From the IMG/VR virus record IMGVR_UViG_3300032007_000048, positions 1-64,000 of that record: a DNA stretch of 64,000 nucleotides. The stretch is one strand, 5' to 3'. Shown in pieces: positions 11,234 to 61,400 of the stretch. The stretch is from a virus. Lineage: Duplodnaviria > Heunggongvirae > Uroviricota > Caudoviricetes. The position numbers and the translations under genes are program-made. Within the stretch, counting starts at the first letter, position 1, and every line of letters starts with the position of its first letter. The notes beneath the pieces were generated by a model. That model ran no database searches. It saw only the letters and a list, made by a program, of their open reading frames with translations, and was not told the origin of the DNA.

Positions 11234-11235
11234 AA

Positions 11236-13491: not shown

Positions 13492-13494
13492 GCA

Positions 13495-14010: not shown

Positions 14011-14011
14011 C

Positions 14012-15060: not shown

Positions 15061-15078
15061 TTTTTTAAATTTTTATAT

Positions 15079-15942: not shown

Positions 15943-15981
15943 ACTATTTATTAAAAAATAAGCGACAAAAAAACCGAAACA

Positions 15982-20960: not shown

Positions 20961-21124
20961 GTTGTAATTCCATTTAATTTATGGTTGACTAACACCTAGT
21001 CTAACAAACCTAAAAAGCCTGACAGGTTGTAATTCCATTTAATTTATGGTTGACTAACATCTGCCATGAGGCATCTTGACAAGAACAGAAGTTGTAATTT
21101 TATTTACTTTTTTACATTAATAAA
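20961..21124 (+). CRISPR. CRISPR-like mini-array: three 34-nt repeats (third degenerate), two 31-nt spacers
   Basis: R1 20961..20994 and R2 21026..21059 are identical (GTTGTAATTCCATTTAATTTATGGTTGACTAACA). The spacers 20995..21025 (cctagtctaacaaacctaaaaagcctgacag) and 21060..21090 (tctgccatgaggcatcttgacaagaacagaa) are unique and equal in length. R3 from 21091 keeps GTTGTAATT and then diverges. The array lies 51 nt upstream of the TnpB-like gene on the same strand. Confidence 0.6.
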
Positions 21125-21162
21125 CTATTTATAAATAGAAAAAATAAAAATCTATTCATCTT

Positions 21163-35970: not shown

Positions 35971-36019
35971 ATTCTATAACTATTTATATTAAAATATTGT
36001 ATAAAATTAATATTGGATT

Positions 36020-44597: not shown

Positions 44598-44958
44598 TTC
44601 TTTTACGTATTGCTTTTATTTTTTCTTTTATTAAGCGTTCCTCTAATTTTTTCTTTATCACATCCCCATGACAAGTTTTGGGCTTACAGAAACAACCAAG
44701 ATAAACTTCCTCACCGTTTTTGTATTTTTCAAAAATCTCATCAACAATATCAGTAAACTCCTTGTTATGGCCATACATAATGTCAAAATATTCACCATAT
44801 TTTTCTATTGTTTCTTCCCTATCAGAACACTGAAACAAAGCAAGTGTTTTCTCAACATCCAAATAAGTGTAAGGATTGGATAAAATACTTGGCCTCCCTA
44901 TATAATAATAGTTCGGATAAGTTGTTTTATCTGTGTTTATGTTTATGATGTTAATCAT
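44587..44958 (-). CDS. hypothetical protein
   Basis: 123-aa ORF. Confidence 0.4.
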   Translation of the reverse strand: MINIININTDKTTYPNYYYIGRPSILSNPYTYLDVEKTLALFQCSDREETIEKYGEYFDIMYGHNKEFTDIVDEIFEKYKNGEEVYLGCFCKPKTCHGDVIKKKLEERLIKEKIKAIRKRNER

Positions 44959-45039
44959 TTTTTACAAAAATACAAATTATTACGGAATTAAACAATACTT
45001 TTATTAAGATTTTGATATTTATGGTTATATAATGTTTTT

Positions 45040-45738: not shown

Positions 45739-46191
45739 TTAGAGCATGTTGTTATATTCTTCGACTGCGAAGTAAACATTGACCTCAACACAATGGTTAA
45801 AGTCATCAGGTTCGTCATCCATAGGCTCATAAATTTTATATGACACAGTAAAGCCACCTGAACTGATTTCATTACATCTATCTTCAAACAGTTCACAAAG
45901 CAAATTTAATAGGTTTTCTTTGATTTGTTTAATCGTTGGCACTTGGTCACCCGTACAATACCAATGCCAATCAAGTGCTTCCATTGTGTCATGTATTTTC
46001 TGAAAATCAATGGTGTTCATTATCTCTTTTATACAATCAAGCATTTGTCTTTCACCTTCAGGTGTTGAGATGTAGTCGTCAATTGTTTTTAAGACCCTAA
46101 ATGGTTCTGGTTCATTACCTTCTTCTTCAAATGCTTCGTTTTTTTTGTCTAAGTATCTTTCATAATACTTGTCTTTAAGTGTTTTAGCCAT
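45739..46191 (-). CDS. hypothetical protein
   Basis: 150-aa ORF. Confidence 0.45.
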   Translation of the reverse strand: MAKTLKDKYYERYLDKKNEAFEEEGNEPEPFRVLKTIDDYISTPEGERQMLDCIKEIMNTIDFQKIHDTMEALDWHWYCTGDQVPTIKQIKENLLNLLCELFEDRCNEISSGGFTVSYKIYEPMDDEPDDFNHCVEVNVYFAVEEYNNML

Positions 46192-46213
46192 TTTTCTATT
46201 TATGTTTTAGTTA

Positions 46214-46807
46214 TTATTGTTGTTTTCCGCTAATGTTTATAGCAAAATCATATAAGGAAGGATATCTCATTATTTTTTCGCAATTGCTTTTTACCTTCAA
46301 CTCTTCTAAAGAAATGTTCTTGTTATATGGGGCATCTATTATCACACCATATTTTGCGTTACATCCTTCAAAGTTCCAATCATTGTCATCAACAAAATAT
46401 GTTGGGTGTAACAATGTTTTGTCTTTTAAAAAACAAATGCCGTTAGGTATAATGTCATGTTTTTCCAACCATTCCAATGTGTCCTTCTTGTTTTTGTAAC
46501 TTTTTTGATATGTCACTATAATAACATCACCATATTCTTTCAAAATGTCAATAGCCTCTTTTATTTTTGGTAATGCCTCCGATTCAAGAAACAGTTCCGT
46601 GCTATGTTTTTGAAAAAACCATTGAGAGCCAGTCATTCCTGTTTCTGATTTTATTCTTGGGAATGAGTTATCTACCACAAAGTCCGTGATGTCATCATAA
46701 GTAAGGTTATCTTTAAATTCTTTGTTGTACAAAGACACCATATTACTTAATAGTGCCCTAAGTACTTCATCACAATCAATTGCGAATGTTATTTTATTTT
46801 TCGTCAT
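46214..46807 (-). CDS. HAD-superfamily hydrolase, 5'(3')-deoxyribonucleotidase-like (putative)
   Basis: 197 aa. The N-terminal FAIDCDEVL matches HAD motif I DxDx(V/T) in an NT5C-like context. Confidence 0.4.
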   Translation of the reverse strand: MTKNKITFAIDCDEVLRALLSNMVSLYNKEFKDNLTYDDITDFVVDNSFPRIKSETGMTGSQWFFQKHSTELFLESEALPKIKEAIDILKEYGDVIIVTYQKSYKNKKDTLEWLEKHDIIPNGICFLKDKTLLHPTYFVDDNDWNFEGCNAKYGVIIDAPYNKNISLEELKVKSNCEKIMRYPSLYDFAINISGKQQ

Positions 46808-47690
46808 TTTCTATAATGTTTCTAAAATCAATATTGTGTTCTTGTAAAATTTTAATAAGTTTTCTTGTGTACGCTAAATTTTCCCTTATTGTTTCGTTGG
46901 CATAATCTAACTCTTTACTTTTTTTGCTCCAACATTCTTCCCAATATTCATGACTTTCCTTTTCTTTTTCATATTTTTTCATTAAATCAAAATAAGACAA
47001 TTTCTCATTTTCAGGTTTGTTCACCACTTCGTTTAATTGTTCTTTTACTTTGTCTGTTTTTTCTTTTTCATCACCGGCTTTAGTTCTCCAATCTCTGTAA
47101 TTGTAATAAAATTTGTCTGTGAGATTAAGACCCTCAACAGTGTTTTTCTTAGTCGTGAGTTTGGGTGCTGTTTTAACTATCTTAAAATATGGATAATAGG
47201 AAATCATATATATCAAACCGCTGTATTCAGGAACCTCATCTTCTGTAACCAAGTTCTCAGGTACGGCATAATAAAAATATGTGGGTAACATTATCTCACT
47301 GTACTTATATTGTTCAGGATGTTTATCAACAAATTTTGTAAACATTTCCTCATCGTATATTGAATAATTCTTGTATTTTTCCAACATACTATAATATTTT
47401 GGTGTGTACCCATCCAAGTTTTTATATTTGCCTTCAAACAATTGATGCTTGTCAGTCTTATGTTTGAAATCGTTTTTAAAGTCCGCTTTGGATATTTTAA
47501 TCTCAAACTCATAAGTCACGTCAGATTTTGTCATTATCCACAAGTCAGATTCCCATCCATATAGATAAAGATTCTCAGCAATGTACTTAATATTGTTAGG
47601 TGACATGAAATAATTAGACAATCTTTTTTGTATTAATTCTTCCGTATATATAGTTTTTTTAAGGATTCCCATTATTTTGTCTTTTTCCAA
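46794..47690 (-). CDS. hypothetical protein
   Basis: 298-aa ORF. Confidence 0.45.
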   Translation of the reverse strand: MEKDKIMGILKKTIYTEELIQKRLSNYFMSPNNIKYIAENLYLYGWESDLWIMTKSDVTYEFEIKISKADFKNDFKHKTDKHQLFEGKYKNLDGYTPKYYSMLEKYKNYSIYDEEMFTKFVDKHPEQYKYSEIMLPTYFYYAVPENLVTEDEVPEYSGLIYMISYYPYFKIVKTAPKLTTKKNTVEGLNLTDKFYYNYRDWRTKAGDEKEKTDKVKEQLNEVVNKPENEKLSYFDLMKKYEKEKESHEYWEECWSKKSKELDYANETIRENLAYTRKLIKILQEHNIDFRNIIENDEK

Positions 47691-47726
47691 AAATACTGAA
47701 AAAAAACATAAAAATCAAAAAAAAAA

Positions 47727-48527
47727 ATGAATTCAATAGACTATTTATATGTAAAATGTTTAATAATGACAATACAGGAAATTTTTAATAAAATACTTGT
47801 TTTTTTAGGTTTTTCATTTTCAGAAAACAAAAAAAATGAGACAATTGAAGAGACAGTTGAGTCTAATGCCGGTATTGTGGAAAATAGTAAGGAAGATATG
47901 TACAATTATAATGGTAAAGTGATTCTTTTAGACAATGGTCACGCGAGGTCAACAGTGGGGAAAAAAGGACCTTTTTTTGAAGATGGAACAAGATTCTATG
48001 AGTATGAGTTTAATAGGGACATTGTTAAAAGGATTACCGAAAAATTAGATAAATTAGGTGTTAAATATCATGTTATAGTACCTGAGTTGGAAGAGGATAT
48101 ACCGTTGTCCACAAGAGCGAACAGAGCAAACAAATATTGTAACCAATATGGGAAAAATAATTGTTTGTTCATATCTGTTCATTCAAATGCGGCTGGAAAT
48201 GGAAAGGAATGGAAAAACGCAAGGGGTTGGTCAGTATATACAACCAAGGGTATAACCAAATCAGATGATATAGCGACCGTGTTCTGGAATGAGGCAAACA
48301 AATTGTTACCTGAGTATGGTATGACCATGAGAAAAGATATGACCGATGGTGACCCAGATTATGAGGCTAATTTCACTGTGATATATAAGACATTATGTCC
48401 TGCGATATTAACTGAAAATTTATTTTTCGACAATAAGAAAGATTGTGAGTTTCTTATGTCTGACGAGGGTAGAGATGTTATTGCTCAAATACATGTCAAT
48501 GCAATAAAAAGAATATGTTTTGAATAA
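47727..48527 (+). CDS. N-acetylmuramoyl-L-alanine amidase (Amidase_3-type endolysin)
   Basis: 266 aa. DNGHARST, ISVHSNAAG and LTENLFFDN correspond to the His/His/Glu zinc-site motifs of the CwlV/AmiC family. Confidence 0.7.
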   Translation: MNSIDYLYVKCLIMTIQEIFNKILVFLGFSFSENKKNETIEETVESNAGIVENSKEDMYNYNGKVILLDNGHARSTVGKKGPFFEDGTRFYEYEFNRDIVKRITEKLDKLGVKYHVIVPELEEDIPLSTRANRANKYCNQYGKNNCLFISVHSNAAGNGKEWKNARGWSVYTTKGITKSDDIATVFWNEANKLLPEYGMTMRKDMTDGDPDYEANFTVIYKTLCPAILTENLFFDNKKDCEFLMSDEGRDVIAQIHVNAIKRICFE

Positions 48528-48544
48528 AAAAATAACAATATATT

Positions 48545-48919
48545 ATGGGAATAATAGAAAGAATTGGTAAAACACTTTTGATTAAAAGTAATCAGTTAGT
48601 TGGAGGAAAAGCTAAACTGCCTACTACAAGCCAAATTGAGGTGGGTGAGTTAGCTATTAATTATCATAATGGCTATGAGACAATTTCAACCATTAATGAC
48701 AACAATGAAATTGCCACATTCTCATCTGATAGTCAAGTTAAAGATTGGCTTGCTCATGTTAGTGGTTTGCCGGCTGTTACAACTGAGGATAACGGTAAAA
48801 TATTGATTGTTTCCGAAGGTGAGTGGATATTGGCAACACCTTCAACAATTTATACCGGTTCAGGTACACCGGCACAAAACTTGGGAAAAGATGGTGATAT
48901 TTTCTTACAAACTTCATAA
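48545..48919 (+). CDS. hypothetical protein
   Basis: 124-aa ORF between the endolysin and the tailspike. Confidence 0.4.
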   Translation: MGIIERIGKTLLIKSNQLVGGKAKLPTTSQIEVGELAINYHNGYETISTINDNNEIATFSSDSQVKDWLAHVSGLPAVTTEDNGKILIVSEGEWILATPSTIYTGSGTPAQNLGKDGDIFLQTS

Positions 48920-48938
48920 TTTCTAAAACAAAAGCAAA

Positions 48939-51900
48939 ATGGATTATCAGAAAGTAAATAATACATGGAAACCTGTTTCCGGTTATTATAGAAAAAATAA
49001 TGGCGTTTGGGAAACAATAGATGCTACCACATTTGAAAATTTTGTATCATCAAATGTGGTAATGTTTGGTGGTTCTGTTGACGGAAACCACACCTTGACT
49101 ATAGGTGGTATCACAAGCATAAGTGGTGTGTCATGTTCTTTTACCGCAATATATGATAATATGACAAACGTGACAACTGCTGCGACTTGGAGTATTGTTA
49201 GTGGTTCTTCTTATGCCACAATAAGCGCACATACAGGTGAAGTTGAAATTTTGTCTACAGCAAATGAAAGCAATGTTATTATACAGGCATCATATCTTAA
49301 TGTGGCAACCACACAAGAATTAACATTAACTTATTATACAGGTTCAACAAGTGAGACTGAAACTGAAATTGATATAGATGAAAGTGGTAACACAACCACA
49401 ACCACAACAACCACCACAACAAACGAGGATGGTTCATCATCTGTTATCACAACAACAGTTGTCACAGATGAAAGTGGTAACACAATCGGTTCAAGTGAAA
49501 GTAATAAAGATATTAATTCTGATGGTTCATTTAATGCCACAACAACCAACTATGATAGTGAAGGTAATGCCACCGATGGTATTAATCAAAGTGGTGATAC
49601 AAGCGGTAATGTGAGTAGTCAGGAAGTTGAGTACGATGAAAGTGGTAATACAACTGTGACAGGTTATCAAATTGACACTTCAGGTAATCCAGATGGTACT
49701 AAAGAATTTAACGGTGATGGTGTCAACACTGAATACTATGCTTTTGATGTGACACAAGGATTTATCGCTGACATACATTTTGTTATCAATTGTAATAACA
49801 GTCCAACTGGACAAAACGAAAATCACCATAATATACTGACAGCGAAAAGAAGTTCACCTTCACCTTGGTACGGATTCCAATTAAGACAAACACTCACAGC
49901 AAAAACAATTACGTTGGGTACACAGTTCTCTACTGGAAGTAATATTAATACTACAATACAACCAATGCCTACAACAGGTAATAACCTTGAATATAACCTT
50001 AGAATTATATACAACCCTACCGTTTCAACAAATTCTTTTATTTGTAGAAACATGGCAACAGGACAAAATGTATATACAAGTAATGGAAAATTCCCAGACA
50101 TTGATGACCTTAGATATATTAAGGTCACAATTGGTTATGCTATGGATGAGAATGGAGACCCGTTCAGATATTCGGATATTGATGTGAAAAATTTCTCAAT
50201 CAGAAGACTTGAGCAACTTTATACTCCTGTTATATCTTGTAGTCATAATGTTGTTACCATTTCTTGTGAAACAACAGGTGCTGATATATATTACAAACTA
50301 AATCAAACCGGAAGTTTTATGCAATATACATCAGCATTCACAATAAGTGCTGACACAATTGTTGATGCTTATGCGGTATATTGTGATGTTAATAGTGATA
50401 CTGTCACTGAGGTTTGTAGATATGAAGAAGAAGGCGTGAAAGCACCTGTTATTACTTGTGACGGAACAGGTGTTACCATTACTTGTGAAACCGAAGGTGC
50501 AACCATTTATTATAAATGTAACCATGTTGGTGGATACAGTGCATATACACAAACATTCCCAATAACTGCCGATACTTTTGTGGAATCATACTCTATGTTA
50601 GATGAGGAAACAAGTCAGGTTGTCAGTGAAATGTGTATTTATAGTGAAACACATGATTATTCTCTTGACTATCTTACCTTTAGGGTTAAATCTGGCGGAA
50701 CAATTTCTTGGAATTCTGTTGGCACACAACAAGTGAAGGCAATTCAGTATAGTCTAAACAATGGTTCATGGACATATTTAGTGCCATCATCTGTTGGTTC
50801 ATCTGTTTCAATAACTGTGTCTGAGGATGATGTGGTAAGAATCAAGGGTTCTAATGCATCTTATGGTACAACCAATGAGGATTACATGGGATTCAGTGGT
50901 GGAACTGCGGTGTTTGATGTCGAAGGTAACATAATGAGTCTTGTTTACGGTGATAACTTTGTTGGAAATACCGCACTTACAGGAACATTTAACTTCTGTT
51001 CATTGTTTAAGCAAGCAAATGTTATATCAGCAGAAAACCTCGTCTTACCAGCAACCACTTTGACACCATACTGTTATCGTGCATTATTTGCCAATAGTGA
51101 AACAGTAGCAATTGCACCTGCGTTACCGGCAACAACACTTGCGGAAGGTTGCTATCGTTATATGTTCCAATATAATGCAATAAGAACCGCACCTGAACTT
51201 CTTGCACCTGTGTTGGTTTATGATTGTTATGAAGGAATGTTTAACAATTGTCATAACTTGAATTATATTAAATGTTTAGCCACTGATATTTCTGCATCAG
51301 CAGCAACTGCTAATTGGGTTACAGGTGTGGCATCATCAGGTACATTTATTAAAAATGCCAGTACAGAATGGGTTCTTGGTATTAGTGGTATTCCTACAAG
51401 ATGGGATGTTATTGATGAGGGACTTCAAGCACCTGTCATATCTTGTGATGGTCTCCATATAACTTTGGTATGTTCAACACAAGGTGCAAGCATTTATTAC
51501 AAATTGAATAGTCAAGGTGATTACGCATTATATTCCACACCTATATCAATTTCTGCTGATACTTTCATTGAAGCATACTCTATGTTAGATGAGGAAACAA
51601 GTGAGGTTGTCAGTGAAACTTGTATATATGATGATGGAATTGATGAACCTGTTATATATTGTGATGGTGAGTATGTCACCATATCTTGTGCAACAGGAGG
51701 TGCGTCAATCTATTATAAGTTTGATTTAGACCCTATTTATAATCCATATGATTCAGCAATTGCGATTTCAGCAGACACAGTATGTTATGCATATTCTGAA
51801 ATTGACGGTAGACAAAGTGAAGTTGTCTCAGCCACTTGTGTTTATGATGATTCACTTAAAGCACCTATCATTGAATGCAATGGAACTGTAGTTACAATTA

Positions 51901-54900
51901 CATGTCACACAGTAGGTGCTGATATAAACTATAGATTAAACGAAGAAGGAACATATTCCTTATATAATGCACCAATAGTTATTTCAGCAGACACAATAGT
52001 TGAGGCATATTCTGAGAAAGATAGTGTAGTAAGTACTATCGTAAGTGCATTTTGTGAATATAGTGATGTTCATGACTATTCCCTTGATTATCTTACGTTC
52101 AGAGTTCTTTCAGATGGTACAATCGGTTGGAATTTAGTTGGAACCGGTTTTTCTAAAACAATTCAATATAGTAAAAATGATGGTGCATGGACAACTTTAA
52201 CACCAAGTACTTCAACTACAATATCGGTTGTAACAGGAGATGTTATAAGGTTCAAAGGAACTAACATATCATACGCAAATGATAAATCAAATTATTCAGC
52301 GTTTGGTTCATCCGAAGCCAATGTAGGTGGTGGAACCGGCGCAACATTTAATATAGAAGGTAACATAATGAGTCTTGTTTACGGTGATAACTTTGTTGGA
52401 AACACCGCACTTACAGGAACATATAACTTCTGTTCATTGTTTAAATTAACAAATGTTGTATCAGCAGAAAACCTCGTCTTACCTGCAACCACATTAAAAG
52501 AGTATTGCTATCGTGCAATGTTTAGTAGATGTTATGAGTTAGTTAAAGTTGTCGAATTACCGGCAACAACGTTAGCAAAAGGTTGTTATTGGTATATGTT
52601 TGACAAATCAGCATCATTTGAGGTAGCACCTGAATTACCTGCCACAACACTTGTTGCGGAATGTTATGGACATATGTTCGAGGAATGTACAAGTCTTAAT
52701 TATATTAAATGTATGGCAACTACAGGATTTACCGCAAATAATTGTAAAGCATCATGGACAAGTGGTGTTTCCGCTACAGGTACATTTGTTAAAGACAGTT
52801 CTGCATCCACATCCACTTGGTCTAAAGGTGCAAGCGGCATTCCTACAGGTTGGTTAGTATATGATGATGTGGCAATTGATGCTCCTGTCATTTCCTGTGA
52901 CGGATATAACAACGTAACCATTACTTGTGATACAACAGGTGCTACAATTTATTACAAACTTAATGGCGAAGATAATTATGCCACATATAACACACCAATA
53001 GTCATATCTGCAACCACTGTTGTAGAGGCATATTCTGAAAAAGATGGCCAAGAAAGTAGAGTTGTTTCACAAACTTGCGAATACATAAGTGATGTTCCTT
53101 TGGAAGCATGTAACAGGGATTTAACCAAATGGACTTACAGCAATCAGGAAATAACAACACCATATTCTGTTAATAGAATAGATGGCCATAGTGCAAGTTA
53201 TGCAAAGGGAACATTCAATTTTGAGACAAGTTTCGCTTTGCGTGAGGTACAGCCAACATATTTATGGTTCCAACATGCAGACCAATCTGCCACAATATAT
53301 GTGGATGATGTTTTAGTGGAAAAACACTGGGGTGGTTATGCTGCGTTTTCAGTTGACATATCAGAGTTTGTTCATAGCGGAACAAACAGAGTAAAGGTTG
53401 CTCTTAAAAATAATGAGGGAAACAACCTTGCTCCTGCGAGTGCTGACTTTAACTTCAACGCCACACTTGGTAATGTTAAACTTTATACAAGTCCTGTAGT
53501 ACCTGATATGATTTATGGATATGACGGATTCCATGTCACTTCGGATGTGGCGTTATCTTCCGCAACCATTGAAGTTAAAACAAGTGTTCCTACAGGTGCA
53601 ACCGTAACTTGTGAGATAAGTGATGGTACATATCATTATGGTGCGTCAGGTAGTAGTACAGGTGAAGAAATGATATTTAGTGCAACTGTTACCAATCCTC
53701 ATCTATGGAATGGTACAACTGACCCTCACTTATATAACATAACACTTAATGTTTATCATAATGGTGATTTGTATCACACATATCAAAGACCTTATGGTTT
53801 GAGATTCTATAGTTATGTAATCAATGAAACTGTCAATGGAGACACATATACAGGCTTCTTACTTAATGGGCAACCATATTTGTTAAGGGGTTGCTGTATG
53901 CATGATGATATTGATGGAAAGGCTAACGCATTGGATGATGATGATTATACACAGACATTCAGCATTATTCAAGAACTTGGTGCTAATTTCCTACGCCTTG
54001 CACACTATCCACATCCAAAGGAAACCTATGATTGGTGTGATAGATTAGGTATTATTGTACAGACAGAAGGACCTTGTGTTAATAAAATGCAGTCAACAAT
54101 GCCAGCTGATTATTATACACACCTTATTGGACAATATAATGACATGGTAAATCAGCATTATAATCACCCATGTATTTGCTTCTGGGGATTAAGTAACGAA
54201 ACCACAACTGATGATAAGGCTTTTGCAAAAGAAAAGATAAATGGTTATATTGCACAAATTAAAGCCTTAGATTCAGAGCGTATGGTAGGTTATGTTATGG
54301 CTCAAGGTCCTGGTTCTGACCCAAGTGCATATTATAATAATCCAGATGCTGATTGGTTCGGTTGTAACATTTACGAAGGTTGGTATAGTAGCCCCAATTC
54401 AAATAATCCATCAACTCAGATAAACACTCGTGTTAAGAACGTTATAACCAATAAGAGTAAGGCTCTTGCTTATTCAGAGTATGGTTGTGGCGGTACGCAA
54501 CATTGTCACTCTGACGATTATATGACAACAACAACAAGGGGTAATCGTGAAAGGCATGATATTGAGTATATGATGTGGTTACATGAAGGTCATATAGCGG
54601 CAATTAAGAACTATCCTCAACTATTATTCACTTCACAATGGCAATTATTTGATATCGCAGTGTCTAACAGAAATGAAGGTTATACTGTATGTCTTGACGG
54701 TGTTATTACATCTACAAATGATAATTTAAGGAGATTAAATGACAAGGGTCTTGTTGAAAGAGACCATCGTACAAAGAAGGATGTTTTCTATCTTTACAAG
54801 GCATGGTGGAACACAACAGATATATTTGTACATATTTGTGGTAAAGACTATACCAAGATGACAGATAGGGTTATTAAATGTTATACTAACTATAATAATA

Positions 54901-55046
54901 GTTTATCACTTTATGTAAATGATACTTTTGTTGAGACTGTTTCCGTAACTGACAATATTGCAACATTTACTGCAAGAACTTTCAGTGCAGGTGATGTGGT
55001 TAGAGTTGAAGGTGGTTCAATTAATGACACATTCACTTTTAAATAA
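48939..55046 (+). CDS. giant tail/tailspike protein: Ig-like (CHB_HEX_C/Fn3-like) repeats, two LRR modules, C-terminal GH2-type glycoside hydrolase
   Basis: 2035 aa. Thr-run and DESGNT low-complexity region. About 7 repeats of APVI(S/T)CDG..VTI(T/S)C.T.GA.IYYK. Two LPATTL..CY..MF modules, each ending NYIKC(L/M)AT. C-terminus: GH2 sugar-binding signature IYVDDVLVEKHWGGYAAFSVDISEFV, TIM-barrel signature FLLNGQPYLLRGCCMHDDIDG...GANFLRLAHYPHPKETYDWCDRLGIIVQTE, and acid/base WGLSNE. Confidence 0.7.
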   Translation: MDYQKVNNTWKPVSGYYRKNNGVWETIDATTFENFVSSNVVMFGGSVDGNHTLTIGGITSISGVSCSFTAIYDNMTNVTTAATWSIVSGSSYATISAHTGEVEILSTANESNVIIQASYLNVATTQELTLTYYTGSTSETETEIDIDESGNTTTTTTTTTTNEDGSSSVITTTVVTDESGNTIGSSESNKDINSDGSFNATTTNYDSEGNATDGINQSGDTSGNVSSQEVEYDESGNTTVTGYQIDTSGNPDGTKEFNGDGVNTEYYAFDVTQGFIADIHFVINCNNSPTGQNENHHNILTAKRSSPSPWYGFQLRQTLTAKTITLGTQFSTGSNINTTIQPMPTTGNNLEYNLRIIYNPTVSTNSFICRNMATGQNVYTSNGKFPDIDDLRYIKVTIGYAMDENGDPFRYSDIDVKNFSIRRLEQLYTPVISCSHNVVTISCETTGADIYYKLNQTGSFMQYTSAFTISADTIVDAYAVYCDVNSDTVTEVCRYEEEGVKAPVITCDGTGVTITCETEGATIYYKCNHVGGYSAYTQTFPITADTFVESYSMLDEETSQVVSEMCIYSETHDYSLDYLTFRVKSGGTISWNSVGTQQVKAIQYSLNNGSWTYLVPSSVGSSVSITVSEDDVVRIKGSNASYGTTNEDYMGFSGGTAVFDVEGNIMSLVYGDNFVGNTALTGTFNFCSLFKQANVISAENLVLPATTLTPYCYRALFANSETVAIAPALPATTLAEGCYRYMFQYNAIRTAPELLAPVLVYDCYEGMFNNCHNLNYIKCLATDISASAATANWVTGVASSGTFIKNASTEWVLGISGIPTRWDVIDEGLQAPVISCDGLHITLVCSTQGASIYYKLNSQGDYALYSTPISISADTFIEAYSMLDEETSEVVSETCIYDDGIDEPVIYCDGEYVTISCATGGASIYYKFDLDPIYNPYDSAIAISADTVCYAYSEIDGRQSEVVSATCVYDDSLKAPIIECNGTVVTITCHTVGADINYRLNEEGTYSLYNAPIVISADTIVEAYSEKDSVVSTIVSAFCEYSDVHDYSLDYLTFRVLSDGTIGWNLVGTGFSKTIQYSKNDGAWTTLTPSTSTTISVVTGDVIRFKGTNISYANDKSNYSAFGSSEANVGGGTGATFNIEGNIMSLVYGDNFVGNTALTGTYNFCSLFKLTNVVSAENLVLPATTLKEYCYRAMFSRCYELVKVVELPATTLAKGCYWYMFDKSASFEVAPELPATTLVAECYGHMFEECTSLNYIKCMATTGFTANNCKASWTSGVSATGTFVKDSSASTSTWSKGASGIPTGWLVYDDVAIDAPVISCDGYNNVTITCDTTGATIYYKLNGEDNYATYNTPIVISATTVVEAYSEKDGQESRVVSQTCEYISDVPLEACNRDLTKWTYSNQEITTPYSVNRIDGHSASYAKGTFNFETSFALREVQPTYLWFQHADQSATIYVDDVLVEKHWGGYAAFSVDISEFVHSGTNRVKVALKNNEGNNLAPASADFNFNATLGNVKLYTSPVVPDMIYGYDGFHVTSDVALSSATIEVKTSVPTGATVTCEISDGTYHYGASGSSTGEEMIFSATVTNPHLWNGTTDPHLYNITLNVYHNGDLYHTYQRPYGLRFYSYVINETVNGDTYTGFLLNGQPYLLRGCCMHDDIDGKANALDDDDYTQTFSIIQELGANFLRLAHYPHPKETYDWCDRLGIIVQTEGPCVNKMQSTMPADYYTHLIGQYNDMVNQHYNHPCICFWGLSNETTTDDKAFAKEKINGYIAQIKALDSERMVGYVMAQGPGSDPSAYYNNPDADWFGCNIYEGWYSSPNSNNPSTQINTRVKNVITNKSKALAYSEYGCGGTQHCHSDDYMTTTTRGNRERHDIEYMMWLHEGHIAAIKNYPQLLFTSQWQLFDIAVSNRNEGYTVCLDGVITSTNDNLRRLNDKGLVERDHRTKKDVFYLYKAWWNTTDIFVHICGKDYTKMTDRVIKCYTNYNNSLSLYVNDTFVETVSVTDNIATFTARTFSAGDVVRVEGGSINDTFTFK

Positions 55047-55123
55047 TTGACACTATTTATAATAAAACTAAATTGTTAAATATAGATTTTTATGACACAA
55101 ATTAAACTAACAGAACAACAATA

Positions 55124-55281
55124 AGAAAGATTGTGAATTTCTTATGTCTGATAAGGGTAGGGATGTGATAGCGCAAATACATGTTAAAGGAAGAAACGGT
55201 TGGTACACAATAGAAGATTATAGTATTTTGAGTGAATTGTTACCAAAAGATAGGATTTACAAAACCAAAAAATTAGAATGA
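55124..55281 (+). pseudogene. remnant of an amidase gene 3' end
   Basis: 55124..55185 is 89 percent identical to the endolysin 3' end 48435..48496 (both encode KKDCEFLMSD.GRDVIAQIHV). The open frame continues to the TGA at 55279..55281 without a plausible start. Confidence 0.45.
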
Positions 55282-55400
55282 GAATATTTTTTTTAAGGTA
55301 ACACTTAATCTGACTAAGTATGACTATAAAATACTAACATTTAGTGGTGTTTTTTCTTTTATTTAACTATTTATAATATAACAAAAAAGTTTTTATTATT

Positions 55401-55853
55401 ATGGAGTCAGTTAAAATTAGTGAGAAACAATTGTATTCGATAATATCTGAATCAATAGTAAAGATATTGAGAGAAGAAAGAAGTGAAAACATAGATAATG
55501 ATATTATTGAACTAATATCATATTTACACAATATGCAAAAACCTTTAAGGGAAATTCATTGGAATACCAATGAGTATTCCACACATATGGTAACTGATGA
55601 GACCATTGATGATGTCATTGAATGGGAAGACACATTAGCTGAAGCCTTTGTCAGTAACACTAATATTGAATTAACTATTAGTGATGTGAAACCTTCATCA
55701 GATTACAAAACATTAATGGAGGAATTAATCAATAAGGCAAGCACAATTAAAGACAATATTTCAGATAACAAGGAATATGACAGTATATGTGCTGTTTTGG
55801 ATGAGATTATTGAGAAATCAAATCAATTGTTATATAAGAGTCAATTAAAATAG
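55401..55853 (+). CDS. hypothetical protein with shared N-terminal motif
   Basis: 150 aa. N-terminus ISEKQLYSIISESIVKILREE. Confidence 0.45.
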   Translation: MESVKISEKQLYSIISESIVKILREERSENIDNDIIELISYLHNMQKPLREIHWNTNEYSTHMVTDETIDDVIEWEDTLAEAFVSNTNIELTISDVKPSSDYKTLMEELINKASTIKDNISDNKEYDSICAVLDEIIEKSNQLLYKSQLK

Positions 55854-55860
55854 TAATATC

Positions 55861-56577
55861 ATGCCAGCGAAAAGCAAATCACAACAAAGGTTGTTCGGAA
55901 TGGTACATGCTTATCAAAAAGGTGAGTTGAAAAATCCATCGTCAGAGATAAAGTCAATTGCGAAATCAATATCCAAAAAAGACGCGGAAGATTTTGCGGA
56001 AACAAAACATAAAGGTTTACCAAACAAGGTTAAAACCAAGAAAAATGAGGAAAGGAATATGGGTAAAAATAAAGTTAATGAAAGCTATGGAATTGGTTAT
56101 AAAGGACAATTCATCAAAAAAGGTGGATGGGGACCGACATTTACATCATTTCCTGAGGATGCCATAAAGTTCAGAACACCTGAACAAGCACAGCAATATA
56201 TGGAAGAAAATCTTGGTGATGACTTTGGCGCATCAGTTGTCTCTTTACCTTTACAAGAAAACAAGAATGTGGTTAGAATCAATGAAAACCAGTTACATAG
56301 TTTAATTGCTGAATCAATAAAAAGAGTTCTTAAAGAACAATGGGATTTTGATGACGAAGACGATACATTCACACCTCAGGGGTACAAAACTGATTCCAAT
56401 TGGGGAGGTACTGAAATACAGATAAACAAAAACGGTGATGCCGCAAGACTTAGAGACAATCACGGTACACCAGGAACACCTACTGATTGGATGGAGATTC
56501 AGTTTGATGAAAACGGTGTCGCATATGTTGAGACTGAGAATGGGACAGTTCGATTAGATGAGTTTATGAGAGTATAA
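55861..56577 (+). CDS. hypothetical protein with internal copy of the shared motif
   Basis: 238 aa. INENQLHSLIAESIKRVLKEQ occurs at residue ~145. The N-terminus is basic. Confidence 0.45.
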   Translation: MPAKSKSQQRLFGMVHAYQKGELKNPSSEIKSIAKSISKKDAEDFAETKHKGLPNKVKTKKNEERNMGKNKVNESYGIGYKGQFIKKGGWGPTFTSFPEDAIKFRTPEQAQQYMEENLGDDFGASVVSLPLQENKNVVRINENQLHSLIAESIKRVLKEQWDFDDEDDTFTPQGYKTDSNWGGTEIQINKNGDAARLRDNHGTPGTPTDWMEIQFDENGVAYVETENGTVRLDEFMRV

Positions 56578-56580
56578 AAA

Positions 56581-56611
56581 AAGCCACTGAATATTCAGTG
56601 GCTTTTTTTAT
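56581..56611. terminator. bidirectional intrinsic terminator
   Basis: Perfect palindrome aagccactgaata tattcagtggctt, flanked by aaaaa and ttttt. Confidence 0.7.
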
Positions 56612-56625
56612 TAACATAGCATATT

Positions 56626-57714
56626 TTAATCAACATCAAACTCTTCGATAGTAAGAACAGCGGCTCTTGATGTCTGAACACTGTTACCTGCATCAAAACT
56701 TGTTGAAAGTCTAAAAGTACTCGCAGGGACATTAAGTTCATAAATAAGCACATCCTTAACTGCCTTAGCCCTGTTCTCAGCAAGTGTGGTGTTTCTGCTC
56801 TCAGTACCTGTTCCACTGTCTGCTGAGCCAACGATATGGACAACCATATTGTCCTTAATCTGCTTTGAGAACTCAACAATCTTAGCATGTTCGGTAGGTG
56901 AAAGCACATCACTGTTCAAGTCAAAAGTAATGAAAGTCTTACCAACAAATGTGGGGATAGGGGTCTCTACCTGCTTCTCAACAACCCTCTCAGTCACAAC
57001 TTCCTTAACAACAGGCTCCTTATTCAAAGCCTCATTAAGCTTAGCCTGAAGAGCGTCATAATCGGCCTGACTGTACCTATAGTCGTTGGTCACAAAATTA
57101 TGGGAATTGACCCTATGGTTCTTAAACTTGTAAGTAAAACCAACCTCACAAACAAAGATAGCCCTTGTTCTGTTAAGATTATAGAAATTGTCGTAAGTCA
57201 ACCAAGTAACGGTAGGCTTGAAATTAATCTGTGCAGCCCTTGCCTTTCCAAGATTAACATTAAGTTCACCACCAAGGTTATAGTTCAAGGTATTGTGATG
57301 TGTGACAGGCTTGCCATAACCATGTCCCCAACCAAAACCAGGAACAGCAACAACCTCTACCCTTCTTGGTGCGCCCTTATAACCGCCAAAGAAATTGGAC
57401 ATATTAACCTTTGCGTTGGCGATAACATTACTCTCATCAAAGAAAGTGTATGAACCTGTGGTGTTAAAGAAGCCTCTACCAACAACGCTGAAACCGTAAA
57501 CAGGGGTAACCCAAGTACCAATCTCAACTGATGCGGTTGGTCTGAAAGCGTCAATAAAATCACCGAAACTGTCAGCACTCAAAGGTGACGCTCCACCAAA
57601 ATTAACGCTAAAATAAGGCATTCCAAATGAGCCTACATACTCATAATTCTGATTCTGTGCAAATCCCATAATCCCTATGGTAAATGCGATAATTAAACTA
57701 ATAATTTTCTTCAT
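56626..57714 (-). CDS. OmpA-family outer-membrane protein
   Basis: 362 aa. Signal peptide MKKIISLIIAFTIGIMGFA, a beta-rich middle, and a C-terminal OmpA-like peptidoglycan-binding domain (VVHIVGSADSGTGTESRNTTLAENRAKAVKDVL). Confidence 0.6.
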   Translation of the reverse strand: MKKIISLIIAFTIGIMGFAQNQNYEYVGSFGMPYFSVNFGGASPLSADSFGDFIDAFRPTASVEIGTWVTPVYGFSVVGRGFFNTTGSYTFFDESNVIANAKVNMSNFFGGYKGAPRRVEVVAVPGFGWGHGYGKPVTHHNTLNYNLGGELNVNLGKARAAQINFKPTVTWLTYDNFYNLNRTRAIFVCEVGFTYKFKNHRVNSHNFVTNDYRYSQADYDALQAKLNEALNKEPVVKEVVTERVVEKQVETPIPTFVGKTFITFDLNSDVLSPTEHAKIVEFSKQIKDNMVVHIVGSADSGTGTESRNTTLAENRAKAVKDVLIYELNVPASTFRLSTSFDAGNSVQTSRAAVLTIEEFDVD

Positions 57715-57742
57715 TTTTTCTTTTCTTTTTTTTGATTTTTAT

Positions 57743-58156
57743 TTAGTATCTTTTATTAAATAACTCATTTTTAATTTCATCCTTTATTGAATCTCTAAAA
57801 GAAGAACCCCATATAATATTATTCATACCATTAAGTAATATGTCCATAAAAAGACTTTTCATTAGTTTTTCAATATTTTCATCTTTCTTTAGATATTCTT
57901 TAATGGTATTCGTCACTTCATTAAATTCTTCCTTAAAATCTATTTTGTTTATTGTGCTTTCTAATAGATAAGAGGGTTTTTTGTTACCCCAACTGTCACA
58001 AGTAACTAATAAATTTTTTATGTTGTTCTCATCTATCAGATATTGTTTCATTGCGTCAAGTATTATTTGGCGTATGTCTTCTGATGTTATTTTACTAATC
58101 TCATCATTTAATAGTGCGGCGAATTTTTCTTCATTTAAATCAAACTTTACTTCCAT
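57743..58156 (-). CDS. hypothetical protein
   Basis: 137-aa ORF. Confidence 0.4.
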   Translation of the reverse strand: MEVKFDLNEEKFAALLNDEISKITSEDIRQIILDAMKQYLIDENNIKNLLVTCDSWGNKKPSYLLESTINKIDFKEEFNEVTNTIKEYLKKDENIEKLMKSLFMDILLNGMNNIIWGSSFRDSIKDEIKNELFNKRY

Positions 58157-58201
58157 GGTTTTGCAAATCTAATATTTTTATTTTAAAAAGTCAAATATTT
58201 T

Positions 58202-58747
58202 TTAAGAAATTTTAATATGACATGATTTCATGACCTCAATCGCAGCGTCATTATTTTCTTTACTTAAACCTGCGATACAATTTGAATCAACTGAAATTTC
58301 AGCCCTGTCAAATAACGCTGTTTTAAGTAACAAAGCGTTGGTAACAACACAGATACTGCTAACAAAACCAACAATCTCAATGTCCAAATTACCTTGGATA
58401 TTTCTTATTTTTTCCATTAATTCAGTTGAACCGAATGTAGGTTTATTCACATAGTGAATTATCACACCTGATTCAGATAACTCATGTTTGTGCAATGCCT
58501 CTGTTATTCGTTTATCAATAAACCAACCGTTTGTTTTGAATATACAGTGTTCAATAGGTAAATGCTTACCTTCAATTGTGTCAAGATAATCCTCATCATG
58601 TGTGTCTCTTGTTACAAAAATATAATCACCATCAAAGTCAGTTATTTTTTTGACTATGTTTGGGACTTTCTTGTCAGCTTCTTCATTGGCTAATGACCCG
58701 TTTATGAAGTCAACTTGTGGGTCAATGACTATTAGAATCTTTTTCAC
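58202..58747 (-). CDS. isochorismatase-family cysteine hydrolase (nicotinamidase-like)
   Basis: 181 aa. KKILIVIDPQVDFINGSLA matches the N-terminal signature with the catalytic Asp. VGFVSSICV matches the catalytic Cys motif. Confidence 0.6.
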   Translation of the reverse strand: MKKILIVIDPQVDFINGSLANEEADKKVPNIVKKITDFDGDYIFVTRDTHDEDYLDTIEGKHLPIEHCIFKTNGWFIDKRITEALHKHELSESGVIIHYVNKPTFGSTELMEKIRNIQGNLDIEIVGFVSSICVVTNALLLKTALFDRAEISVDSNCIAGLSKENNDAAIEVMKSCHIKIS

Positions 58748-59529
58748 GGCTTTATATATTTTAAAATATTATTTATTTTGGTCACATCAATATAGTTTGT
58801 TTTTCTGTAATTTACAATACTACAACCTGTAATACCTAAATAATGATGTTCATGCGGAAAGTCCAAAATAAACCTTATTTGGGTTTTGTCATCATTATAT
58901 TCATAAGAGACAATGTTGAAATCATCAATAAATGGATTGATAAAATTGTTGTAATATGTCGCAGTATTAAAATCGGATGAACTTTTTCTTTTTTCATCTT
59001 CTTTAATAAGGTCTTTTTCCTTGTCGGTCAGAGTATCATAAATTTCATTTCTGAGCATTGAGACAAACTCTTTTTCGTTTTTGAGAATTTCAGATAATGT
59101 TTCTTTGAATCTTTCCTTCAAATCTTGTTGTTTTTTTATCTCGTTCTCACAAAAACGTATTGAATCAATACAATGAGTTATATCATTAACCGTGTTTTTT
59201 ACCGGTTCACCCAGTTCAAACAATAGTTTTTTGTTTTCTCTTTTTATATTTATAATGTAAAAATCATTACATTTAAACCCAACAGATAAAAAAGGTCCAC
59301 CTGATGGGTCAATCGCAGTTGGGTTATCATAAGAACCGATTAACCTGTAAGGCATCTCCGTGTTACCTAAAACTAATTCGTATTGGTTTTTTTTAACTTT
59401 TTTTAAAATGTTCACATCACCATACCTATTATATGGTATTAAATACTGATTTTTCATCTTTTTTTTTGCAAACATACACATAAAAAAAATAAAAAACAAA
59501 ACCAAAACGAAAAAATATACAAAAAACAA
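58744..59529 (-). CDS. hypothetical membrane-anchored protein
   Basis: 261 aa, N-terminal TM helix. Confidence 0.45.
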   Translation of the reverse strand: MFFVYFFVLVLFFIFFMCMFAKKKMKNQYLIPYNRYGDVNILKKVKKNQYELVLGNTEMPYRLIGSYDNPTAIDPSGGPFLSVGFKCNDFYIINIKRENKKLLFELGEPVKNTVNDITHCIDSIRFCENEIKKQQDLKERFKETLSEILKNEKEFVSMLRNEIYDTLTDKEKDLIKEDEKRKSSSDFNTATYYNNFINPFIDDFNIVSYEYNDDKTQIRFILDFPHEHHYLGITGCSIVNYRKTNYIDVTKINNILKYIKP

Positions 59530-59683
59530 ATAACTAGTAATTAATATAAGTAATTTATTATTAACAATTTATATATTTTTTAAAAGAAATTTTTTATTTA
59601 ATAAAATTAATTACCAGGACCTATAAGTTACTTATTAACAGAAATTTCATTATAAAATTTTTGTTTTTAGGAAATATAATTAG

Positions 59684-59691
59684 TATTTTTG
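59684..59691 (+). promoter_or_regulatory. Bacteroidetes-type -7 box TATTTTTG
   Basis: tatttttg lies 17 nt upstream of ATG 59708 in the AT-rich divergent region. Confidence 0.35.
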
Positions 59692-59707
59692 TAAAAAGAT
59701 TTTGAAA

Positions 59708-60412
59708 ATGAATTACAAATTAAAAAGGTTTTTGACTTGGCCTTACAGGGCAACTAAGTCAAGTTATTTATGTATTAGATTTCCGTTTCTATATCCAAGA
59801 AACAGATTTACGGGTAACCATTACGATTGTTGGGCTTTAGTTGACTATCATAGAGATAATTATCAAAAGGCATACAGATTTGGCGGTAAAGATGAGGGTT
59901 TTAAAGCGATTTGTATTGACAAATGGTGGGCATTTAAGATAAAGGTCGCTGATTTTCTAAATGATTGGGTGTTACAGATTTTCCATTGTGTTCCAACATA
60001 TACTGAGTTAAATGGTATGGATGGTGGTTGGAGAAAGGCATTTGGAATACAGATGTGTAAAGAGATTAAGAGAGCCTTGTTGGACGCAGGTGGAAGAAAA
60101 GCGTTACATAGATATAGGATAATGCAGATTAAAGAGAAATATGGTTCTTTAAGGTGGTATGACCAAGGTGCGCCTAAAGATGTTAATAAAATAGTGGAAA
60201 AATATGGGTATATCTCAGAACATACTTGTGTGAATTGTGGTAGACCTGCTGATTATATAACATCCGGTTATATATTACCTTATTGTGAGAAATGTATTCC
60301 TGAAAAGGCCAAAGAAAGTGCCGATAAATTTTATTATGACATACCTTTTTATGGTATTAAAACTGTGAGGTTTGACAAAAAAGAAGAAGAAAAAGGAGGT
60401 TGTAATGACTAA
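59708..60412 (+). CDS. hypothetical Cys-rich protein
   Basis: The ORF track starts at TTG 59702; the first ATG is at 59708. Contains CVNCG...CEKC. Confidence 0.45.
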   Translation: MNYKLKRFLTWPYRATKSSYLCIRFPFLYPRNRFTGNHYDCWALVDYHRDNYQKAYRFGGKDEGFKAICIDKWWAFKIKVADFLNDWVLQIFHCVPTYTELNGMDGGWRKAFGIQMCKEIKRALLDAGGRKALHRYRIMQIKEKYGSLRWYDQGAPKDVNKIVEKYGYISEHTCVNCGRPADYITSGYILPYCEKCIPEKAKESADKFYYDIPFYGIKTVRFDKKEEEKGGCND

Positions 60413-61400
60413 TTTTTACGATAAACTTTTATTGTTTCACTTAATACATGAGTTTACTTACGGAAATGTAAGCAAGAAAATCTTGTCTGAAACAAGAGGT
60501 ATTGTACCTAATATTGATAATATAGTGAAAACATTTGTGTCTAATATTGGTATGCAAATTTATTCGGCGTTCAATGATGAAAATTACTTTTCAAATGTTG
60601 TGACTTCTGAATACACAGAAAAAGAAATACCATTGCCAAAAGATTGCTTTTTTAACCAATTTTATTTGAAAATAAGTATTGAGAAAAACAACGAAGTTAC
60701 ATATCATGGCGGTATGTATCCCATTAAGTCTTTTATTATAAACAAAAATGGTGATGGTTTTGTTTTTAGACCATATATAGTTTTACATATAGAAGGGGAA
60801 TCAATACAAACTGTTGTGAACAAATTGTCTATAGCGTTATCGCATGAACTGACACATGCGTATGACTATTATATGTATTTTCAAAAAAATGGTTTCCCAC
60901 AATCAGTGGATGATATTGAAAAAAGTGGTACTAAAAGATTCACGGATGCCATGCGTGGAAATCACAGTATTGAAAGAGTAATTGGTGACATAATGTACAG
61001 GTTGTCACAAAAAGAATTAAATGCATATTTAGGGCAATTAAGAACAGAGTTAAAATTTGTTGCAACAAAAATACAAGATGCTAAAACAGCATTTAAAGCA
61101 ATAAAAGAAACTTCATCATACCAAAAAACATACAAGTTTTTAGAGGACGAAATATCTTATATTGTTAACAATGTTGAACGTGAAGATTATCAACACTTAA
61201 TTATTAAATATACTAATAGTGTGGCAAACAAAAACTTTACTAACTATCAGCAAGTAGTTAAATACTATTTTAACAGGTGGTATAAATGGTCAGAAACATA
61301 TCTAACAAAAGCAAGTAAAATTGCCTTTGATGTTTTTAGTGAATCCAGTAATATTGGTTATGAGGATGATAAAACAAATAGTTTGAAAGATACTATTTAA
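60372..61400 (+). CDS. hypothetical protein, possible HExxH metallopeptidase
   Basis: 342 aa. Single HELTH motif (ALSHELTHAYDY). Weak call. Confidence 0.35.
   Translation: MTKKKKKKEVVMTNFYDKLLLFHLIHEFTYGNVSKKILSETRGIVPNIDNIVKTFVSNIGMQIYSAFNDENYFSNVVTSEYTEKEIPLPKDCFFNQFYLKISIEKNNEVTYHGGMYPIKSFIINKNGDGFVFRPYIVLHIEGESIQTVVNKLSIALSHELTHAYDYYMYFQKNGFPQSVDDIEKSGTKRFTDAMRGNHSIERVIGDIMYRLSQKELNAYLGQLRTELKFVATKIQDAKTAFKAIKETSSYQKTYKFLEDEISYIVNNVEREDYQHLIIKYTNSVANKNFTNYQQVVKYYFNRWYKWSETYLTKASKIAFDVFSESSNIGYEDDKTNSLKDTI

Follow-up and report, generated by a model that had tools for sequence, protein, structure and literature searches.

The endolysin-DUF5856 interval and its two junctions

We analysed a stretch of 64,000 nucleotides (nt) of a Caudoviricetes genome (positions 1 to 64,000 of the IMG/VR record IMGVR_UViG_3300032007_000048, hereafter the window), which derives from a 112-kb metagenome contig and is AT-rich (34% G+C). 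Our subject is the interval between an endolysin gene and a DUF5856 gene, in which a short piece of the endolysin 3′ end recurs downstream of two intervening genes. An earlier note on this DNA had regarded the recurring piece as the mark of homologous recombination that swapped or inserted a tailspike cassette behind the lysis gene. We compared the interval with 137 loci of related phages (designated by L numbers), all of them on metagenome contigs. The features of the interval are listed below; the terms donor (A), recipient (B), incoming and older refer to the history that we propose further on.

47727..48527, plus strand: intact endolysin gene, an N-acetylmuramoyl-L-alanine amidase (Amidase_3, Pfam PF01520, E 5e-22)
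48430..48508, plus strand: repeat copy 1, codons 235-261 of the resident endolysin gene
48545..48919, plus strand: p124, first gene of the putative incoming cassette, 124 amino acids (aa)
48939..55046, plus strand: second gene of the putative incoming cassette, a 2035-aa multidomain protein (Pfam, PDB and NCBIfam matches)
55047..55091, plus strand: upstream region of a donor-type (A) DUF5856 gene, colinear with L125 and L126, with the promoter-like motif ACTATTTATAAT at 55052-55063
55092..55122, plus strand: DUF5856 stub, ATG and 9 codons (MTQIKLTEQQ) of a foreign allele, whose closing TAA was created by the junction
55118..55122, plus strand: junction 1, a 5-nt microhomology (ACAAT) common to DUF5856-A codons 9-10 and endolysin codons 235-236
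55118..55187, plus strand: repeat copy 2, an endolysin fragment (codons 236-258) of an allele other than the resident one, attributed to the recipient (B)
55181..55187, plus strand: junction 2, the deletion join in ATGTTAA, a 7-nt perfect match within the 15-nt imperfect repeat (14/15) GCAAATA(C/T)ATGTTAA
55188..55281, plus strand: geneX tail, the last 31 codons and stop of a 307-aa gene, last of the putative older cassette, fused in frame to the endolysin fragment
55282..55400, plus strand: recipient-type (B) intergenic region (from 55173 onward 96% identical to L129 and 95% to L130), with the promoter-like motif of DUF5856 at 55366-55377
55401..55853, plus strand: resident DUF5856 gene (ferritin/Dps-like, Pfam PF19174), whose synteny is kept in relatives and which forms the right-hand conserved anchor of the slot

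A repeat search of the window returned a direct repeat of 79 nt (48430-48508 and 55118-55196, spacing 6688) with 86% identity; the copies differ at 11 of 79 positions and share a perfect run of 19 nt at their left edge. The same pair was recovered when the junction was compared by blastn with the whole window (E = 1.8e-21). The comparison with relatives indicated that the final ~10 nt of this alignment are a chance A-rich similarity and that the genuine endolysin-derived patch is 55118-55187. The count given in the earlier note, 55 identical nt of 62, was borne out by the codon table, which places seven mismatches across 48435-48496 (48449, 48464, 48465, 48473, 48479, 48482 and 48485), so that on re-inspection the identity proved no lower than claimed. 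Its coordinates for the second copy (55124..55185) were one base too high: the matching span is 55123-55184, and at the offset of 6689 implied by that register a mere 14 of 62 bases match. The two copies do bracket the 124-aa and 2035-aa genes, and the frame that runs through the second copy is indeed open to 55281, with an internal ATG at 55144 that yields an open reading frame (ORF) of 45 aa. The second copy is the middle of a three-part scar (55047-55122, 55118-55187 and 55188-55281) between the 2035-aa gene and DUF5856, and the earlier account was incomplete in overlooking the 10-codon DUF5856 stub on one side of it and the geneX tail on the other.

The divergence between the two copies is informative about the origin of the fragment. 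Over codons 236-257 there are seven synonymous and one non-synonymous codon differences, against the 18% synonymous changes expected for random single changes in these codons (P = 4e-5). Differences that are mostly synonymous indicate that the fragment diverged while it was part of a working gene in another genome. Several kinds of substitution occur (G>A, C>T, A>G, T>G and T>A); a template/variable repeat pair of a diversity-generating retroelement was ruled out because the mismatches are not adenine-specific. The resident endolysin ends in IHVNAIKRICFE, the usual ending of its family, and all 33 endolysin homologues inspected end in IHVNAIK(R/K)I, or a slight variation of it, and a few further residues. 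The second copy leaves this canonical ending after HV. Every contig that carries a second copy has it starting at the same junction, at codon 236.

The sequence upstream of the fragment belongs to a different gene. Over the 70 nt that precede the second copy (55052-55122), the window matches the DUF5856 genes of L015, L014 and L011 from their upstream region into their first codons (blastn E 1e-7 to 2e-4), and the stub itself reads ATG ACA CAA ATT AAA CTA ACA GAA CAA CAA TAA, that is, MTQIKLTEQQ and a stop. The resident DUF5856 protein starts with MESVKISEKQ, an allele unlike the stub. Among 120 DUF5856 homologues, P0128 starts with MAQIKLTEQQL, identical to the stub at 9 of 10 residues. This protein is encoded on L125, a contig from the same sample as L009, and there the gene continues intact after a start that is identical to the stub at 30 of 31 nt. 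In the backbone the endolysin end comes before the DUF5856 start; the opposite order seen here is the mark of a novel joint.

L125 defines the right edge of the shared block to the base. It is 98.4% identical to window 52372-55122 over 2751 nt, the match ends exactly at 55122, and L125 goes on as an intact DUF5856 gene; beyond the donor match it is 74% identical to window 55366-56262. The match of L126 (window 53169-55122, 88.6%) ends at exactly the same base and is likewise followed by an intact DUF5856. In a three-way alignment of the junction, L125 reads GAACAACAAT followed by TAAACAG, the window reads GAACAACAAT followed by AAGAAAG, and the resident endolysin reads TTCGACAAT followed by AAGAAAG.

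The left edge is more gradual. The window and L009 are ~70% identical across the endolysin body, and their mismatches are dense to 48326, moderate to 48467, absent from 48468-48535 and rare beyond (9 in 48430-48467, 0 in 48468-48535). Identity to L009 thus climbs from ~70% to at least 94% inside the endolysin 3′ end, between 48327 and 48468, a crossover that could lie in either lineage. Judged by this mismatch profile, the 3′ half of repeat copy 1 (from ~48468) belongs to the horizontally shared cassette, in agreement with the earlier placement of the boundary in the endolysin 3′ end. Identity of the cassette reaches 92-100% with L009 and 98.4% with L125, against ~66-75% in its flanks, which shows that p124 and its neighbour came from another lineage. 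Taken together, the point where the homology of L125 and L126 stops and the left-side profile of L009 delimit the transferred block, which starts in the endolysin 3′ end and reaches as far as codon 10 of DUF5856.

The sequence downstream of the fragment was explained by a second group of contigs. Sensitive blastn and tblastx searches of 55047-55400 against the loci found early had left 55197-55349 unexplained, until L129 and L130 accounted for it. A DUF5856 protein with 97% identity (P0130) is encoded on L129, which matches the window from 55173 onward at 96% and carries, upstream of that match, the end of a real gene, QQIYVKGRNSWYAMEDYSYRVLSELLPKDRIYKTKKLDDEGQE and a stop. Another member of the cluster, P0242, occurs on L130-L137. 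L130-L133 display the order endolysin, p124, 2035-aa-type protein, and then the same DUF5856 stub, ACAAT junction and endolysin fragment as the window. In these four contigs the fragment runs on to a normal endolysin end, HVNAIKKITNTNI and a stop, followed by a 67-aa p124-like ORF, a 727-aa gene, a 307-aa gene (geneX) and DUF5856.

L130 matches the window in two blocks, 3596-6453 to window 52327-55187 (98.3%) and 9752-15968 to window 55173-61370 (95.4%), whose 15-nt overlap in the window is the deletion repeat; the 3298 nt between them (L130 6454-9751) are missing from the window. At the left side L130 reads GCGCAAATACATGTTAA followed by TGCG, at the right side CAGCAAATATATGTTAA followed by AGGA, and the window reads GCGCAAATACATGTTAA followed by AGGA. 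Both copies of GCAAATA(C/T)ATGTTAA, 3298 nt apart, are present in L130-L133, and one hybrid copy is left in the window. GeneX is intact in L129 and in L130-L137, and the 45-aa ORF of the window (55144-55281) is a chimera of the endolysin fragment and the geneX 3′ end. A search of 5.8 billion proteins with this ORF and the 56-aa orphan frame returned self-matches alone.

A search for the diagnostic junction strings across contigs gave the following distribution:

Junction 1: window-type contigs and L130-L133
Junction 2: confined to window-type contigs (L003-L006, L095, L096 and the source contig of the window)
Intact donor site: L125 and L126
Intact end of the endolysin fragment: L130-L133
Intact geneX site: L129-L137

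The window-type contigs with junction 2 come from several independent samples and assemblers. A deletion is the favoured direction of change, since the 3.3-kb segment completes the endolysin frame with the canonical C-terminus of the family; for the same reason a mobile insertion of this segment into a window-type genome is unlikely.

A proposed two-step history of the scar

Based on these comparisons, we consider it highly probable that the second copy has no function of its own and is a relic from the replacement, in two steps, of one tail-fibre-type cassette by another in a large Bacteroidota-type phage. The recipient (B) would have carried the endolysin, an older cassette (the 67-aa p124-like ORF, the 727-aa gene and the 307-aa geneX) and DUF5856, while the donor (A) would have carried the endolysin, p124, the giant 2035-aa protein and DUF5856. 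In the first step, the donor DNA would have been anchored on its left side through homologous or homeologous exchange within or upstream of the endolysin gene, and joined on the right by an illegitimate join at ACAAT, which connected donor DUF5856 codon 10 to recipient endolysin codon 236. The product would have held both cassettes and a duplicated endolysin 3′ end, a state that appears to survive in L130-L133. In the second step, a 3298-nt deletion between the copies of GCAAATA(C/T)ATGTTAA, of which the first lay in the duplicated endolysin end and the second shortly before the end of geneX, would have removed the rest of that duplicated end and nearly all of the old cassette. What would remain is the state of the window, in which 70 nt of endolysin are fused to the last 31 codons of geneX.

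The sequences of both junctions, the donor layout, the two-cassette intermediate and the trimmed product are all present in contigs; parsimony places the events in the order given here. The joins may have been made by a phage or host recombinase or by template switching, the left crossover is positioned tentatively, and the scar is most likely neutral. The insertion of a cassette behind the lysis gene, as proposed in the earlier note, is therefore essentially right, as the block is foreign and the slot variable. The second copy as such is no junction of homologous recombination: an illegitimate join lies at either end of it, with microhomologies of 5 and 7 nt. Likewise, a one-step swap or insertion accounts for the arrival of the cassette, and a later 3.3-kb deletion of an older one is needed in addition, with the supposed orphan frame being the chimera left by it. 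We also abandoned a reading of our own, in which the fragment was the displaced recipient 3′ end, cut by an unspecified event, or template-switching filler, as L130-L133 favour an insertion followed by a separate deletion.

Several points weigh against this history. All relatives are metagenome contigs, and no isolate or long-read genome confirms their layouts. L009, which informs on the left end, and L125, which informs on the right end, come from one sample and may not belong to one genome. The left crossover is not polarisable, and the breakpoint at ~48468 relative to L009 could belong to either lineage. Further, no pure B-type genome, with an intact endolysin directly before the old cassette, was found, for which reason we infer that the fragment is the recipient allele rather than read it directly. 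In principle, a single complex template-switching event could also give the window state, but it would have to coexist with the observed intermediate.

Might the scar instead have been co-opted, with the 45-aa chimeric ORF acting as a small lysis or regulation peptide or a duplicated promoter-like element acting in DUF5856 expression? The motif ACTATTTATAAT occurs eight times in the window with one mismatch allowed, against 1.6 expected, and none of 100 shuffles reached eight. The sites at 55052-55063, 55366-55377, 21124-21135 and 35979-35990 are each followed by an ATG within ~60 nt, at a distance of 35-40 nt in the three cases that were measured, and usually come after a T-run. By its enrichment and position ACTATTTATAAT is a candidate phage promoter element, and the scar holds a duplicated copy of it, retained with the stub. 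Prediction of intrinsic terminators in 54900-55500 returned none. There are also no mismatches in the 354 nt of the scar between the window and L095 or L096, against a background divergence of ~1%; however, just ~3.5 mismatches would be expected, so that zero is weak evidence. Since the ORF has no homologues but itself and is fully explained as two gene fragments fused by deletion, we regard co-option as very unlikely.

An intragenomic tandem duplication from the endolysin 3′ end to the DUF5856 5′ end, followed by deletion and divergence, would also place a DUF5856 start before an endolysin end, which is what a tandem-duplication junction looks like. Yet the stub matches L125 at 30 of 31 nt and clearly differs from the resident DUF5856 allele, the genes after the fragment in L130 (67, 727 and 307 aa) differ from p124 and the 2035-aa gene instead of being diverged copies of them, and the 12%, mostly synonymous divergence of the repeat stands against 95-100% identity among all scar-bearing contigs. 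We judge such a duplication to be highly improbable.

A second complete endolysin at 55.1 kb that has since eroded to a fragment is a still poorer description of the data. In its favour, the second copy of L130-L133 is longer and reaches a proper stop. But no second amidase body was found in any of the 137 loci, the copy always begins at codon 236 and is fused through ACAAT to a DUF5856 start colinear with donor-type phages, and nearly all its differences from the resident copy are synonymous, unlike neutral decay. The full second amidase in relatives, which the earlier note had named as the sign of a decaying paralogue, was looked for and is absent from these loci; we take the second copy as a scar, and a paralogue as exceedingly improbable. 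Finally, site-specific integration, with the repeats as attL and attR of a mobile element that targets and restores the endolysin 3′ end, has in its favour a layout like that of 3′-end integration with an element-borne replacement end and the perfect 19-nt run at the left edge, but it is scarcely credible given that scans of Pfam, PHROG and NCBIfam assign no integrase or transposase family to the cassette genes, 11 of the 79 positions are not shared by the copies, the right copy follows on the DUF5856 stub and is cut short by a separate deletion, and the TnpB-like genes of the window (21163-22323) are not adjacent.

It is conceivable, if rather doubtful, that in this family of large Bacteroidota-type phages the boundary between the endolysin 3′ end and the p124-like N-terminus is a preferred docking site at which receptor-binding cassettes are added and then pruned. 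If so, L130-L133 would represent viable phages with two sets of fibres and possibly a wider host range, the window-type phage would be their streamlined successor, and the repeat would record a recurrent, selectable route of host-range change rather than a one-off accident.

Cassette genes, the variable slot and other features

The relatives were reached through an alignment of homologues, as a search of IMG/VR with the single endolysin protein returned nothing. A back-translated GWYTIEDY pattern gave two matches in JGI metagenomes, both GC-rich, unrelated and due to chance. The relatives share the gene order NT5C, a ~292-aa gene, endolysin, a variable slot, DUF5856, in some cases DUF3008, and an OmpA-like gene. 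The comparison between related phages that the earlier note had called for did reveal a variable region between endolysin and DUF5856, with empty, one-gene and three-gene slots:

L016: empty slot, with 16 nt between the two genes
L017: a single reverse-strand gene of 161 aa
L011 and L012: three genes, encoding 599, 216 and 824 aa
L014: three genes, encoding 654, 218 and 820 aa
L015: three genes, encoding 514, 282 and 823 aa

In the window this slot is occupied by p124 and the 2035-aa protein. In tblastn searches, the N-terminal 70 aa and the C-terminal 50 aa of p124 matched the two ends of the 599-aa and 654-aa genes that occupy the first position of the slot in relatives. Residues 1-70 and 75-124 thus look like the bookends of a larger protein and correspond to the N- and C-termini of the genes at L011 6574-8373 and L014 10631-12595, and L097 (424-876) carries a version of intermediate size (151 aa). 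This suggests that the p124 family has a conserved frame with a central insert that is variable or removable. Otherwise p124 had no match in Pfam, PHROG or NCBIfam, and its single-sequence AlphaFold model was too low in confidence for use (predicted local distance difference test, pLDDT, 50). Among GenBank phages, no match was returned by tblastn, whether the query was p124 or the N-terminal 430 aa of the 2035-aa protein, or by megablast with window 46000-57000.

The 2035-aa protein contains, according to Pfam, two blocks of BspA-type leucine-rich repeats (LRR) and repeated CHB_HEX_C/Fn3-associated domains. Its C-terminus (aa ~1400-2025, ~630 aa) is predicted to form a complete enzyme of glycoside hydrolase family 2 (GH2), similar to beta-glucuronidases and galactosidases. 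The sugar-binding, Ig-like and TIM-barrel parts of the GH2 core (PF02837, PF00703 and PF02836) all scored above their gathering scores, the beta-glucuronidase PDB 7kgz matched aa 1400-2002 (E 1.7e-64), and the match to an NCBIfam LacZ4-like model (E 4e-74) stayed under the curated cut-off. The first 500 aa had no match in PHROG, and the N-terminal part had none in Pfam or NCBIfam either. Meanwhile, proteins from the same slot in relatives resemble tail proteins: the 67-aa p124-like ORF of L130 matches the N-terminus of the tail-fibre family phrog_10316 (E 7e-4), and the 727-aa and 654-aa proteins match the tail families phrog_27373 and phrog_7389 (E 1e-8 to 1e-10). From these matches, a receptor-binding or depolymerase role of the cassette proteins is plausible. 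Of the label GH2/LRR tailspike used in the earlier note, the GH2 and LRR part holds, and tailspike is a candidate role, its support being indirect and drawn from the tail-fibre-like proteins in the slot of relatives. The pair of p124 and GH2 genes was also found in other genomic contexts on IMG/VR contigs, several of them of 360-412 kb.

The C-terminus is the conserved part of the GH2 protein and the middle LRR region its variable part. The gene is itself mosaic: two WOLF17 contigs, L007 and L095, are ~99% identical to the window on either side and 68% identical across 49763-53280. In this latest exchange, seen between the window and these near-identical contigs, the edges fall within the 5′ region of the amidase gene and within the GH2 gene and do not coincide with the repeats that the earlier note had taken as the module boundary. 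The gene also holds an internal duplicated module of ~1.4 kb with ends that are 88% identical (50913-51089 and 52347-52523), and in L130, where the protein has 1557 aa, window 51167-52326 is missing from the gene. Three genes of the window have BspA-type leucine-rich repeats in common, with a period of 78 nt (in the GH2 gene also at 51116-51296 and 52475-52733), and two such genes contribute a 450-nt inverted repeat of 79% identity (23323-23772 on the minus strand, 32097-32546 on the plus strand) that flanks ~8.3 kb and is a possible inversion substrate.

As for the endolysin, its 5′ end (window 47727-47896) varies too: L007 (9022-10017) has a different N-terminus and an extra 331-aa ORF that overlaps the start. 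The endolysin ORF of L130 (466-1227) begins with MTIQEIF; the corresponding position of the window, 47766, may be the true start there instead of 47727. The protein is 46-49% identical to endolysins of Prevotella Lak megaphages. Relatives of the endolysin and GH2 genes (L017, L023, L032, L097 and L100) lie on IMG/VR contigs of 350-412 kb, a contig of 363 kb is listed in the database for the window's own 45-aa ORF and DUF5856 protein, and nucleotide metabolism is well represented among the genes of the window (RNA ligase, helicase, PNK-like, NT5C and SSB). A very large phage is the probable source of the window.

Elsewhere in the window, a motif of ~22 aa, (K/R)(L/I)xExQLxx(I/L)IxES(I/L)x(K/R)(I/V)LKE, occurs three times, at the N-terminus of DUF5856 (55401-55470), at the N-terminus of the ORF at 15982 (15982-16060) and in residues ~139-160 of the 238-aa DUF3008 protein (56275-56340). 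Four tandem 57-nt units at 14789-15051 encode a 19-aa repeat (…GQxxYGKILYNIDGKYIRxG…) in a frame open to ~15055. An IS605/TnpB-type gene lies at 21163-22323 (phrog_506, E 6e-117). In the near-identical L007, the interval that stands in place of window 44631-45023 contains an extra OrfB_IS605/Cas12f-like gene (L007 5062-6246), with no counterpart in the window at that position, which suggests that TnpB elements have been active recently in this phage lineage.

Relation to known systems

The locus is an unusually well-documented case of a known evolutionary process and not a new kind of element or system. Phages exchange tail-fibre and receptor-binding cassettes, for example with a conserved N-terminal anchor and a variable distal part. 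The slot described here agrees with this in its variability, in the tail-fibre-like proteins that occupy it in relatives (phrog_27373, phrog_7389 and phrog_10316) and in its conserved p124-like N-terminal module. It differs in that p124 and the GH2 protein are putative virion components, and in that the C-terminus of the latter is conserved while its middle LRR region varies. As a place of turnover of candidate receptor-binding genes, that of the giant GH2 protein among them, the endolysin-DUF5856 slot is useful for predicting variation in host range in these phages.

The first step resembles homology-facilitated illegitimate recombination (HFIR), which was defined for transformation and conjugation of bacterial chromosomes (PMC3240628). 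In both, one side of a foreign segment is joined at a microhomology, here of 5 nt, and a partial duplication results; the other side is anchored in a homologous gene, here probably the endolysin. Features expected of HFIR are visible at this locus: the insert is far closer to a foreign lineage than its flanks are, and its right end joins non-homologous sequences at ACAAT. Those of a microhomology deletion are visible as well, with the undeleted state present in L130-L133 and the endpoints lying in a short direct repeat of which one copy is kept. Unlike in the bacterial cases, the partners would be two phage genomes, co-infecting or resident as prophages.

A similar arrangement is found at Rhs, contact-dependent inhibition (CDI) and type VI secretion system (T6SS) effector loci, for which an HFIR-like insertion that shifts old modules downstream has been proposed (PMC5361080). 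As in those loci, the conserved upstream end arrives in a further copy along with the incoming module, and the displaced module downstream starts with a fragment of the conserved gene, here in L130-L133. The phage locus differs in that the anchor is the neighbouring endolysin and not the 5′ part of the same toxin gene, in that there is no immunity-gene logic, and in that the orphan cassette was apparently deleted later.

The pattern is also that of phage mosaics, in which patches of high identity are flanked by diverged shoulders of ~70-78% identity (PMC2327257). Here a patch of 92-100% identity lies in a backbone of ~70%, with its left edge in a shoulder of ~70% (the endolysin) and its right edge at an illegitimate join, although the phages concerned are large and uncultivated rather than lambdoid. 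Phage mosaicism is usually inferred from end products, and the debate has set illegitimate joins combined with selection against recombination between diverged homologues. On the former side stands the Hendrix model, which reportedly holds that random illegitimate joins are filtered by selection. The single locus described here keeps the donor layout, the two-cassette intermediate and the trimmed product, with both junctions at single-base resolution. As all three states were sampled, the joins can be read directly, unlike those of most phage mosaics.

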